The position numbers were made by a program, and so were the translations under genes. From the NCBI GenBank assembly GCA_937912005.1, contig CALDOX010000015.1, positions 180,303 to 244,302 of the forward strand: a DNA stretch of 64,000 nucleotides, written 5' to 3'. Below are positions 20,231-23,470 of this stretch, in pieces (positions within the stretch are counted from its first letter, which is position 1; each line of letters begins with the position of its first letter). This DNA is from an uncultured Alphaproteobacteria bacterium (lineage in GTDB: Bacteria > Pseudomonadota > Alphaproteobacteria > CAAGCB01 > CAG-977). A model generated the notes under the pieces. That model saw only the letters and a list, made by a program, of their open reading frames with translations. It searched no databases and was not told the DNA's origin.

Positions 20231-23200
20231 ATGAGTTTATTCGGTGCATTAAGAACCGGCGTTTCGGGTTTAAGCGCGCAATCGTCTGCCATGAGCATCA
20301 TTTCAGACAACATTGCCAACGTGAATACGATCGGTTATAAAGCCAATTCGGCCAGCTTTTCGACGTTAGTAACAAAGCAGGTCTCTTCGACACGCTATTC
20401 CAGCGGCGGCGTTTACTGCCGTACGCGTGCCGGCGTTGATATTCAGGGATTGCTCAGCAGTACGACCATTTCGACCGACCTGGGTATTTCCGGATCAGGA
20501 TTTTTCGTTACGACTCAAACTTCACAGCCGGATGTTGACGATCTGTGGAGCTATACCCGCGTCGGCAATTTCAGCGTCGATCAGGACGGTTATTTGAAAA
20601 ACGACAACGGTTTTTATCTGCAGGCCTGGCCTTTGCAGGCTTTCGACGGTGAAGAAAACGCTTCGTTGGTTCAAATCGGCAACAATATGTATATGAAAGC
20701 CTATACAGACGTCGCCGGAACGACCGTTTATATCAATGACAACATCATTGATGCCAACAACCTCAAAGCTGTCAATCTGAATACAATCGGCGGAACGGCT
20801 CAGGAAACGCAAAACATTTCTTTCGGCGCCAACCTGCCGGCGGACGCTCCCGTGTTTGATCCGGCGGCTCCGGAAAAAGGCGGCCGTTACAGCTCTGCCG
20901 TTTTGGTTTACGACTCATTGGGCAATTCTCATAACGCAACGCTGACCTTTACCAAAACGGATACGGGGACGTGGTCTTTGGATGTCGGTATGCCGTCCGG
21001 CGCCGCAACGTTAGTGACATACAGCTCCAGCGAAGTGACAAACGACGCCGATCAGGATGTTTATTCGGCACGCGCTCAGTTGGAATTCACCTCGATTCCG
21101 ACCAATCACTCCTATGTCGCCATGGAAACAAACGGCAAAAACTATGTGTTTGAATTTACGAAAGACGGGACGACTTCCTATTCCCCGGCCGCAAATGAAA
21201 CCGTCATTGCCGTTGATTTAAGCGCCGGTATTGTCACGACCGCCGACGCTGTCGAAAAACTCAACGACGCCATTCAAGCCACGATGCCCAGCGCCGGCCG
21301 TTTCTCCGTCGGTTCAAACGGAACGACGATTGAAGTCGAACAATCCGCCGCCGGCGCCGCCGTTAAATTCAAAGTCGGAACAAAAGCCTGCATTCAATCA
21401 GCCGCAAATCCCGATCCCGAAACGGGAATTTCCTCCGGTGAATTTGAGTTGCCGGAAATCGACTGGGATATCAAAAACGTTGCCCGTCTGGAATTCAGCA
21501 GCACAACATCCACGGACTATCTGGGCAAATCCATTGCCATCGGAAACAATACTTATCTGTTTTCCGATATAGAAGCTGCCACCGCAAACGGCGTTGCAAC
21601 CGTTAACATCAGTTCCGCTCTCGACAGAGGCACCGGAACCGTCGATACGGTCAAACTGGTCAGTTTGTTGAAATCAAAAATCAATGAAACCGAGCCCGAT
21701 TACAACCGATATGTCGCTTCCGGTTCCACATTGGAAATTAATCCGACGCCGACCGGTTCTGCCATGTTGGTCACCAGCGGGGATTCGGCATCCGTTACAT
21801 TCCAGAACACAAATTTGGCGGCCTATATCGGTTCGGTCATTACGATCGGCGATTCGGAAAACATGCTGGAAAAAAAGTTTCGTTTTGTTGATACGGCAGG
21901 CGTTGCTTCCGGAACACTCATAAATGTTGCCGGAACCGATTACATCGCCGTCAATATTAAAGATTTGGCCGATCTGGACACCAGATCCGAACTGCCGATC
22001 GCGGTTATGAACGAATTGTATAATACGGTGCAAGCCTACTATGAAAAAAATTCGTCCATTACAAATCTGGCCGACTTTTTCCGCGTCAGCGGGCCGACAA
22101 TGGTTGCACCGGCCTCTTATTTGTCAACGTCAGCGCCGTCTGAAGTAACGGTCAACGAACAAAAATTGACTTTTACCGGAACCGCCAGTACGGATTATGC
22201 CGGCAAAAACGTTACGGTAAACGACACGACTTACACCTTTTCCACATTCGGAACGACCAGCGGCACGACGATTGACATCACGGATGCCATCACAACACAG
22301 GTGTTGGATTTTACGGGAATCACCCCTTCTGACGGCAATACGATCGTCATTGGCGGAGTGACCTACGAATTTGACAACGACAGTACCGTTTCCGCCGGCA
22401 ATACCGCCGTGACCATCGGAGCAACGGATGCGGACACCTTGTCCAATTTGGCAACGGCGGCCGGATTGCCCGGACTTGTTCCCGGCGCGACAACGCTGAC
22501 CCTGTCAAACGGAAACATTCGGGAAATCGACGTTGACTCTTCCGGCGCCACTTTGACCGAAAACGTCAACGCGTCACAAGTTATGACCCTTTTTGCCGCC
22601 GCAATCGGCAAAGACGATTCCGAATATCTCAGCGGAGCTTCTTTAACGCTGCGGCGTTTCGGTTCCAATCCGTTCGGCTCTATGACCGTAACCACTCAGA
22701 CGCTTGATACGACCTCTCCCGCCCCTACGGAAGAATTTATCGCGTCGGGATCGGAAACGGGCGTAGGCTCTGCCGTCAACGTTACCGGCAAAGACAACGG
22801 GAAACAGATCAATCAGCCGGTCTCAGGAGGACTGCTGGTTTTGTCGAACACATTTTCCTTTAATAATGTCGCGAAAGCGCAAAGCGGTTCTTTAATTCCG
22901 TCTGTCAAATTCAACGCGGACGGAACACCCAAACAGATCAATACCGATAAAATCGCGATCGAATGGGCGAACGGCGCCAGCGATATGACTGGAAACTATT
23001 ATGAAAGTTCGCAGATCAATCTATATATCGGCGATGCCAACACCGCAAACGGTTTAACGCAGCTGTCCGGCAATTTTGCAACAAACTACGTCAATCAGGA
23101 CGGCGCAAAATACGGCAACTACACCGGTGTTTCCGTCAGCAAAGACGGTATTGTCACCGCGATTTTCGATAACGGCGAAACCCGCGCGATTGCGCAAATC

Positions 23201-23470
23201 CCCTTGGCAACGTTCGTTGATGTCAACTCGCTGGAAGCTCTGACCGGCAACGCATATATCGAAACGACTTCTTCGGGCAACGCGACATTGCGCACGGCCG
23301 GAGAAAGCGGCGCGGGCACTATCGCCAGCAGCTCGCTTGAAAACTCGACGGTTGACATCGCGGAAGAATTTACGGATATGATCACAACGCAGCGCGCTTA
23401 TTCCGCCGCGTCCAAGATCATCACTACCGCGGATTCCATGTTGGAAGAACTGCTGACGATCAAGCGGTAG
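20231..23470 (+). CDS. flgE: Flagellar hook protein FlgE, unusually large (~1079 aa).
   Basis: The N-terminal rod/hook domain (MSLFGALRTGVSGLSAQSSAMSIISDNIANVNTIGYK) and the C-terminal conserved end (DIAEEFTDMITTQRAYSAASKIITTADSMLEELLTIKR) bracket a ~700-aa Thr/Ser/Gly-rich insert. The start was chosen at the ATG 8 nt after AAGGAG. Confidence 0.9.
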   Translation: MSLFGALRTGVSGLSAQSSAMSIISDNIANVNTIGYKANSASFSTLVTKQVSSTRYSSGGVYCRTRAGVDIQGLLSSTTISTDLGISGSGFFVTTQTSQPDVDDLWSYTRVGNFSVDQDGYLKNDNGFYLQAWPLQAFDGEENASLVQIGNNMYMKAYTDVAGTTVYINDNIIDANNLKAVNLNTIGGTAQETQNISFGANLPADAPVFDPAAPEKGGRYSSAVLVYDSLGNSHNATLTFTKTDTGTWSLDVGMPSGAATLVTYSSSEVTNDADQDVYSARAQLEFTSIPTNHSYVAMETNGKNYVFEFTKDGTTSYSPAANETVIAVDLSAGIVTTADAVEKLNDAIQATMPSAGRFSVGSNGTTIEVEQSAAGAAVKFKVGTKACIQSAANPDPETGISSGEFELPEIDWDIKNVARLEFSSTTSTDYLGKSIAIGNNTYLFSDIEAATANGVATVNISSALDRGTGTVDTVKLVSLLKSKINETEPDYNRYVASGSTLEINPTPTGSAMLVTSGDSASVTFQNTNLAAYIGSVITIGDSENMLEKKFRFVDTAGVASGTLINVAGTDYIAVNIKDLADLDTRSELPIAVMNELYNTVQAYYEKNSSITNLADFFRVSGPTMVAPASYLSTSAPSEVTVNEQKLTFTGTASTDYAGKNVTVNDTTYTFSTFGTTSGTTIDITDAITTQVLDFTGITPSDGNTIVIGGVTYEFDNDSTVSAGNTAVTIGATDADTLSNLATAAGLPGLVPGATTLTLSNGNIREIDVDSSGATLTENVNASQVMTLFAAAIGKDDSEYLSGASLTLRRFGSNPFGSMTVTTQTLDTTSPAPTEEFIASGSETGVGSAVNVTGKDNGKQINQPVSGGLLVLSNTFSFNNVAKAQSGSLIPSVKFNADGTPKQINTDKIAIEWANGASDMTGNYYESSQINLYIGDANTANGLTQLSGNFATNYVNQDGAKYGNYTGVSVSKDGIVTAIFDNGETRAIAQIPLATFVDVNSLEALTGNAYIETTSSGNATLRTAGESGAGTIASSSLENSTVDIAEEFTDMITTQRAYSAASKIITTADSMLEELLTIKR

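Follow-up and report, generated by a model that had tools for sequence, protein, structure and literature searches.

A giant flagellar hook protein with a tandem-repeat insert in uncultured Alphaproteobacteria of the gut and rumen

Analyzing a 64,000-nucleotide stretch of contig CALDOX010000015.1 from an uncultured alphaproteobacterium (the window, whose positions are used throughout), we found that flgE, the gene for the flagellar hook protein, encodes a giant form of 1079 amino acids (aa; 112.8 kDa), in which the D0-D1-D2 hook core is interrupted by an insert of about 620 aa. The insert occupies a single loop of domain D2, consists of diverged tandem copies of one small beta/alpha domain, and is shared by a clade of gut and rumen Alphaproteobacteria. 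An initial annotation, made from the sequence alone, had already recognized a giant FlgE with both termini intact and a long internal insert, which our analysis bears out, while the roughly 700 aa it assigned to the insert shrink to about 620 aa upon alignment. Searches for literature on the flagella of this gut clade found none, and where we looked for surveys that compare FlgE proteins by size or by outer domain, only flagellin surveys came up; as far as the searchable literature shows, the giant FlgE of this clade is undescribed.

The complete open reading frame (ORF) of flgE (20231-23470, plus strand, stop codon included; ORF listing, Pfam and NCBIfam) runs from an ATG at 20231 to a stop at 23468-23470 through 1079 codons with no internal stop, and a Shine-Dalgarno GGAG lies 7 nt upstream of this ATG. 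An in-frame alternative ATG at 20225, two codons earlier, is too near the GGAG, and all homologues begin with MSLFGAL. Pfam places the N-terminal rod/hook helix at aa 7-37 (Flg_bb_rod, PF00460; 45.9 bits against a cutoff of 20.7), the FlgE/F/G D1 domain at aa 86-149 (PF22692; 35.8 against 27), FlgE_D2 at aa 206-330 (PF07559; 41.8 against 22.7), and the C-terminal helix at aa 1033-1076 (Flg_bbr_C, PF06429; 56.8 bits against 23). The NCBIfam model for the FlgE/F/G subfamily, TIGR03506, is passed with 275 bits at a cutoff of 70. All FlgE equivalog models remain under their cutoffs (NF004242 comes closest, with 335 against 365) and align only to about aa 1-370 and 883-1079, their scores probably being lowered because the insert splits the FlgE core. 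Judged by these domains, the 1079-aa protein is a genuine flagellar hook protein with its D0-D1-D2 core intact.

Among 5.8 billion proteins searched, we identified more than 100 clusters (90% identity) of full-length colinear FlgE with 1062-1089 aa and 68-80% identity, all from uncultured Alphaproteobacteria. Likewise, a scan of one genome per species recovered the same flgE in 22 species, as intact ORFs of 866-1299 aa in 21 of them and cut by the contig end at 985 aa in the remaining one (L013). The source records of these species name human-gut metagenome-assembled genomes (MAGs; UMGS, HGM and "Acetobacter sp. CAG:977"), UBA MAGs whose source is not given, horse faeces, and rumen, the latter including roe deer, sheep, water buffalo and RUG MAGs. 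The order fliK-flgD-flgE is kept in 21/21 loci with an upstream flank (the locus of L013 is cut inside flgE), and fliF and fliG usually follow. A FlgE of about 1000 aa is thus ordinary within this gut and rumen clade, present in 22 species and more than 100 clusters, an outcome that the initial annotation had itself named as refuting its reading. What is exceptional is this clade itself.

The same homologues bear on whether the gene could be an artefact of frameshift fusion or misassembly, or else a FlgE paralogue, non-functional or accessory, with no part in building the hook. There is no positive evidence for either. C. jejuni (Campylobacter jejuni) does possess two flgE-like genes, and its hook is built by the large one only (PMC5069557). 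Against an artefact stands a single continuous ORF colinear with more than 100 homologues from independent assemblies; because these homologues are full-length and colinear and synteny is kept, we rejected a fusion of two frameshifted genes, a possibility raised at the outset. Against a paralogue stand the location of the gene, which in 22 species is the usual one next to flgD within the core operon, and the strong conservation of the core (0.75-0.91 identity). We consider this explanation extremely improbable.

To place the insert, the clade profile was aligned to solved FlgE structures. The N-terminal core (aa 1-261; 20231-21013, plus strand; supported by Pfam) comprises the D0 helix, Dc, the N-terminal part of D1 and the initial half of D2, which extends to the YDSLG...W...PSGA hairpin, and aligns to residues 4-221 of Salmonella FlgE; within it, aa 188-261, including the hairpin "YDSLGNSHNATLTFTKT..W", match Salmonella 143-221. 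The insert follows at aa ~262-885, within a D2 loop. A linker (aa ~861-885) then leads into the C-terminal core (together 22811-23467, plus strand; Flg_bbr_C), made of the second half of D2 (from VKFNADGTP), the C-terminal part of D1 and the D0 C-terminal helix, where aa 933-1070 match Salmonella 264-401 and aa 881-1071 match C. jejuni 665-850. The insertion point accordingly falls between Salmonella residues ~221 and ~230, i.e., after the YDSLG...W hairpin. All forms from 636 to 1299 aa use this one insertion loop, including distant FlgE proteins of 636, 715, 745 and 860 aa, which carry a smaller insertion at exactly the same place. Apart from the insert, D1 of the window protein has ~25-30 additional residues relative to Salmonella FlgE at aa ~137-187 (20639-20791).

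As the initial annotation had noted for extended hooks, published structural work describes additional FlgE domains as typical of Campylobacterota, apart from a single one in Caulobacter (PMC5097172, PMC5069557). The same work counts the 865-aa FlgE of C. jejuni among the longest hook proteins (PMC5097172, PMC5069557); the D3/D4 domains of this protein, Gly233-Leu618, are inserted at Salmonella Thr167/Pro168, and D3 of Caulobacter sits at the same position (PMC5069557). This site, ahead of the YDSLG strand, is not the insertion site of the window protein. One segment of this comparison, C. jejuni 609-650 against window aa 220-256, is not significant alone (i-Evalue 1.2e+02) and was placed with the help of the YDSLG..H motif that both proteins share, together with the published D3/D4 coordinates (PMC5069557). 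Since the C. jejuni and Caulobacter domains precede the hairpin and the window insert follows it, the latter lies in a different D2 loop, which argues for a separate origin and points to an insert that arose independently of the Campylobacter and Caulobacter insertions.

Size, domain type and model scores also distinguish these proteins. The window insert has ~620 aa compared to ~386 aa in C. jejuni, within a protein of 1079 aa (up to 1299 aa in relatives) compared to 865 aa, and it comprises tandem copies of one domain, whereas C. jejuni carries two unrelated domains, D3 and D4. Against the epsilon-type model flgE_epsilon (TIGR02489) the window protein scores 152 bits, far under the cutoff of 412.85, with matches confined to the core regions. 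With this score, the other insertion loop and no D3/D4 fold match, we rejected assignment to the Campylobacterota D3/D4-type FlgE. Caulobacter crescentus FlgE (591 aa) is likewise alphaproteobacterial with a D2-inserted surface domain (PMC5069557), but this is a single D3 in the Campylobacter position with no repeat array, and the window protein reaches only 316 bits with flgE_Caulobact (NF040922; cutoff 750). The insertion loop, the domain type, and tandem-repeat growth with copy-number variation all set it apart from the Campylobacter case.

The repeats are visible only by profile-profile comparison; a BLASTP search of the FlgE against itself did not find them. The proximal part of the insert (aa 262-630; 21014-22120), which is present in every species form from 866 to 1299 aa, holds three repeats: R1 at aa 280-349 (21068-21277; repeat hidden Markov model, HMM), R2 at aa 416-485 (21476-21685), modeled with a predicted local distance difference test score (pLDDT) of 84-90, and R3 at aa 519-601 (21785-22033; hhalign, AlphaFold and repeat HMM), which has a longer helix. 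The distal hypervariable module (aa 631-860; 22121-22810), delimited by conservation, an AlphaFold2 sub-model and fold matches, holds R4, R5 and a beta/alpha subdomain. R4 at aa 642-690 (22154-22300; hhalign, five-copy alignment and repeat HMM) is a short copy without the helix, and R5 at aa 689-734 (22295-22432; repeat HMM and sequence searches) carries a motif shared with phages (ITPSDGNTIVIGGVTYEFDND...VTIGATDADTLSNL). All of these features are on the plus strand.

Comparisons of the segments aa 400-505, 506-630, 631-690 and 685-770 indicate that R2-R5 are mutually homologous (hhalign probability 88-98%, with 98% for R2-R3 and 97% for R2-R4), and R1 (segment aa 262-385) is weakly related to R2 (82%). 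The five copies align cleanly on the pattern L-x-F-T ... D-Y-x-G-K-x-I-x-I-G-x-x-T-Y-x-F ... V-x-V/I ... followed by an amphipathic helix, so that the insert reads as one ~50-90-aa beta/alpha unit repeated in tandem, with five copies that have diverged from each other. Moreover, the copy number returned by the repeat HMM tracks protein length, with 2 copies in forms of 636-745 aa, 3 in those of 860-876 aa, 5 in most of 1062-1085 aa and 6-7 in those of 1154-1299 aa. We also observed that the Pfam FlgE_D2 match extends into R1 (aa 262-330; 21014-21220) and that the first hairpin of the repeat (LEFTxIP...) resembles the true D2 strand VKFNADG; duplication of part of D2, instead of a phage source, might have given rise to the repeat unit.

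The full-length AlphaFold2 model reaches pLDDT 80-90 over aa 417-853, and a sub-model of aa 631-860 has a mean pLDDT of 81.6 and a predicted template modeling score (pTM) of 0.75. Because of these high values, the insert is best described as a string of folded beta/alpha domains rather than a disordered or mucin-like region, in agreement with the initial expectation of extra folded domains. The insert had further been characterized as rich in Thr, Ser, Gly and Asn, a trait that turns out not to distinguish it: Ser plus Thr make up 24.2% of the insert compared to 21.5% of the N-terminal and 21.7% of the C-terminal core, and its hallmark is instead the tandem repetition of one domain. With confidently modeled folded domains and a Ser/Thr content close to that of the core, a low-complexity or disordered linker was rejected.

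These values also bear on a proposal that came with the initial annotation, that the insert is a Ser/Thr-rich scaffold for heavy O-glycosylation of the hook. Flagellin glycosylation is known in Campylobacter and Caulobacter (PMC7591256), and a Ser/Thr content of 24% would be compatible with it, but the core is nearly as rich in these residues, the insert is modeled as beta/alpha domains unlike a mucin-type linker, and neither the flagellar cluster and its flanks in the 64-kb window nor the flgE-adjacent cargo of relatives contains a glycosyltransferase or sugar-biosynthesis gene. A glycosylation scaffold is therefore very unlikely.

Conservation falls from the core toward the distal end of the insert. 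Across species, identity to the window protein is 0.75-0.91 in the core, 0.62-0.80 at aa 281-520 and 0.24-0.43 at aa 600-840. The forms of 866-876 aa are without aa 635-842, the distal module, and those of 1154, 1244 and 1299 aa have 86-234 extra residues, mostly at aa ~699-772. The same gradient is found within a lineage. Among 102 alleles of 1066 aa (median pairwise identity 96.9%), mean per-site diversity is 0.011 in the N-terminal core, 0.030 in the proximal insert, 0.085 in the distal module and 0.009 in the C-terminal core, so that the distal module is ~8-fold more diverse than the core. At most of these loci, FlgE as a whole changes faster than FliF, FliG and FlhA, with 66-73% identity in the ~1060-1085-aa forms compared to 72-97% in the other three.

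This gradient could mean that the main task of the array is to act as a shield or decoy, hiding the hook core from antibodies or flagellotropic phages, with a distal layer that diversifies to escape them. The 8-fold excess of distal diversity, the gain and loss of whole repeats between species, and hosts that are gut and rumen organisms facing immunity and phages would all fit. However, deep conservation of three inner repeats is not something that a shield would require, and it is mainly the filament, rather than the hook, that serves as antigen and that flagellotropic phages usually take as their receptor. We therefore regard a shield as an unlikely main function.

The insert alone was also searched against 1.84 billion representative proteins, giving 39 matches at E<=1e-3. 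Its proximal part (aa 261-578) occurs there only in long FlgE-like proteins and their fragments, and a ~50-aa piece of R5 also matches large non-flagellar proteins (E 1e-11 to 5e-4). The shared motif has the consensus QPxDGDxITIGGxxYEFDxxGxVxxGxxxVxIGxTxxxTxxNLxxAI, and its carriers include P0138 (1.4e-11), P0139 (8.2e-10), P0142 (3.5e-5) and P0155 (4.8e-4). Those carriers that could be classified belong to phages, P0142 being a tail protein (phrog_376) and P0155 a baseplate wedge protein (Baseplate_J, phrog_219; Pfam/PHROG). Two others, P0147 (by Pfam) and P0145 (by a catalytic motif in the sequence), have only a GDSL-lipase domain and are not counted among the phage proteins. P0143, a 296-aa fragment, combines the same ~50-aa module with a Flagellin_C domain, suggesting that the module is used elsewhere as a flagellin outer domain. 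No PHROG family matches the insert, nor any Pfam family beyond the FlgE_D2 extension into R1, and its sequence has zero matches in the PDB even at E=10.

Phage proteins also appeared in the fold searches. Foldseek returned six matches at E<=1e-3 among predicted viral structures (best 2.7e-6), including Baseplate-J-like and Mu gp47/XkdT-like proteins, a major tail protein and two proteins of Rhodobacter phage RcTitan; against the PDB, the full FlgE model had no match at E<=1e-3, and the best plausible one was a phage PhiTE tail (E 0.08). Outer domains of FliD (Helicobacter pylori, Bdellovibrio) and D2/D3 of FliC (Pseudomonas aeruginosa) were also matched, with weak fold scores and no sequence similarity to those solved structures. 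The D3/D4 domains of C. jejuni FlgE, against which the initial annotation had proposed to check the insert, appear in none of the fold-search lists and show no sequence match. The repeat domain thus belongs to a loose class of decoration domains on tubular assemblies, i.e., phage tails and flagellar axial proteins. Known counterparts in this class are the decoration or insertion domains that phages carry on proteins of the baseplate wedge (Baseplate_J, Mu gp47/XkdT-like), tail, nozzle and sheath. The ~50-aa motif of R5 constitutes a specific sequence link to the baseplate and tail modules, compatible with transfer in either direction or with none at all. The phage module sits in host proteins unrelated to FlgE, and no curated family describes it.

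The phage link raises the possibility that the array is mainly an adhesive or ligand-binding surface, for mucin, plant-fiber glycans or other cells, with any reinforcement incidental. Phage baseplate and tail proteins, in which this domain class recurs, touch host surfaces, and receptor-binding modules are often variable, as the distal part is. However, the hook is short and lies beside the cell surface, making it a poorer site for an adhesin than the filament or cap, the strong conservation of the three proximal repeats is better explained by structural packing, and no known carbohydrate-binding family was matched by Pfam or in the PDB sequence search. An adhesive function is improbable as the main one. 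A bolder idea, to which we give a similarly small chance, is that each subunit contributes two to seven copies of a module exchanged with tailed phages to a coat around the hook. Beyond reinforcement, such a coat would turn the hook into a surface organelle able to evolve, with a role in binding glycans of the host or its diet, or in blocking or decoying antibodies and flagellotropic phages. If true, this would make the hook, not the filament, the site of host and phage interaction, and the hook itself the thickest yet seen (>30 nm).

Instead, we favor with moderate confidence a thick, reinforced hook with a fast-evolving surface as the best single explanation, because the habitat parallels that of Campylobacter and Helicobacter, with polar flagella in viscous gut contents. 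FlgE of C. jejuni and H. pylori likewise combines a normal D0-D1-D2 core with a large D2 insertion in a polar flagellate living in such contents (PMC5097172, PMC5069557). In C. jejuni, D3/D4 widen the hook from 180 Å (Salmonella) to 280 Å and make it more robust, and their loss weakens it (PMC5097172). By analogy, the window FlgE would serve as the structural hook subunit of a polar flagellum, its D0-D1-D2 core building an 11-protofilament tube and its ~620-residue array, presumably grown in one D2 surface loop by tandem duplication of a beta-hairpin-plus-helix domain, forming extra concentric outer layers in the assembled hook of ~120 subunits. R1-R3 would most likely make lattice contacts within and between protofilaments, thickening and stiffening the hook, and a stiffer hook could carry the motor torque in viscous gut and rumen contents, a solution parallel to that of Campylobacter and independently reached. 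The distal repeats would form the exposed surface, with 0 to about 4 extra copies, as expected under pressure from, possibly, host immunity or phages. If the lattice and packing density of C. jejuni apply (92 kDa, 280 Å), the 112.8-kDa subunit would give a hook diameter of about 310 Å and the 137.7-kDa form one of about 340 Å.

Several points weigh against this reinforced-hook model. All members of the clade are uncultured MAGs, and the geometry and role of the hook are predictions from sequences and models. The comparison covered flgE loci, and a second, short FlgE may be encoded elsewhere in these genomes. Relaxed constraint would account for the high distal variability no less well than diversifying selection. 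For the FlgE proteins of this clade, the E-values of the repeat HMM are circular, because these proteins also served to train it, and only the phage and distant-FlgE matches are independent. Finally, the full AlphaFold model, built on a shallow 16-sequence alignment, has a mean pLDDT of 52.9 with the FlgE core below 30, and with so low a core value the model does not fix how the array is oriented on the tube.

A long FliK had been cited in the initial annotation as a further sign of altered hook geometry. The gene for this hook-length control protein (17415-19391, plus strand; Pfam Flg_hook) does encode 658 aa and is syntenic in relatives (33-65% identity). Under the ruler model, FliK length sets the length of the hook and not its thickness, and a 658-aa FliK would predict a long hook. 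FliK is long clade-wide, and since it is similarly long in species with an 866-aa FlgE, its length is uninformative on hook thickness.

Independent origin, if correct, would provide a second route to an oversized hook protein, through another D2 loop, another domain, and tandem-repeat growth up to 1299 aa, in a further lineage that inhabits viscous gut contents. The two lineages can thus be compared to learn whether a thick hook is adaptive in the viscous gut habitat, and with its 2, 3, 5 and 6-7 repeats the natural series may help to determine how hook stiffness depends on the mass of the outer layers. The link to phage tail decoration bears on the exchange of outer domains among tubular assemblies. 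Moreover, the carriers are common, uncultured bacteria of the human gut and rumen whose motility is unstudied. Enlargement of an axial protein in its exposed region is also seen in the giant flagellins (>1000 aa) of Bermanella marisrubri and Oleibacter marinus, whose tandemly repeated extensions produce thick filaments (PMC6248924); these are filament flagellins of marine Gammaproteobacteria with unrelated outer domains, in contrast to the hook protein described here.

In the window, flgE is part of the gene order rpsD, fliK, flgD, flgE, fliF, fliG, fliH, fliN, a sigma-54 activator gene, flhA, flhF and flhG. Directly upstream, flgD (19405-20142, plus strand) encodes the 245-aa hook cap/scaffold protein (Pfam FlgD, FlgD_ig and FlgD_tudor), and the downstream genes from fliF to flhG, including that of the FlbD-like sigma-54 activator, occupy 23833-33079 on the plus strand (Pfam). 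With the sigma-54 activator and FlhF/FlhG as its signature, the cluster has the gene content of a polar-flagellum cluster. Of the CtrA/FlbD-type setting first proposed, the FlbD-like activator is retained, and the setting as a whole reads as this polar signature.

The interval between flgE and fliF is a 363-nt gap in the window and holds variable cargo in relatives, among which there are neither glycosyltransferases nor a second flgE. The cargo consists of two methyltransferases dependent on S-adenosylmethionine (SAM) in L011 (13299-14844), an ICMT-like methyltransferase, Lgt and a radical-SAM enzyme in L021 (12644-15990), and a 296-aa ORF with no Pfam match in L015 (13454-14344). Two of the relatives' records appear to contain errors. 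L009 (CAVCSV010000014.1) is titled Limosilactobacillus gorillae, yet it carries an alphaproteobacterial flagellar cluster with a 1085-aa FlgE, and the contig is probably mis-binned. In L022 (10001-12635; Acetobacter sp. CAG:977 scaffold), FlgE ends in ...DGRYHAGRTDDH compared to the conserved ...MLEELxxIKR, probably through a frameshift or assembly error.

Cys63 of the window FlgE (20417-20419), in the Dc region, is invariant in 16/16 aligned clade members, and the cysteine count rises from 2 in the window protein to 12 in the 1299-aa form (L019). In the spirochaete-type FlgE crosslinked by lysinoalanine, the residues involved are a conserved pair at the D1-D2 interface, a Cys in D2 and a Lys in D1, and Cys63 is not at that site (PMC9254593).

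Directly after flhG lies a 642-aa ORF (33090-35018, plus strand) with zero Pfam matches, and a weakly similar ORF (26-73% identity) is found at this position in related loci; it may encode an undescribed flagellar or polar-landmark protein. Further downstream, a 1388-aa ORF (41203-45369, plus strand) matches no Pfam family at E<=1e-4. Away from the main cluster, a second small flagellar island occupies 56400-60585. It begins with the gene for an OmpR-family response regulator (228 aa, minus strand), a CtrA candidate, followed by fliI and a possible fliJ with a weak match, these three lying at ~56-59 kb, and then by a 470-aa ORF whose sole match, also weak, is spermine-synthase-like.

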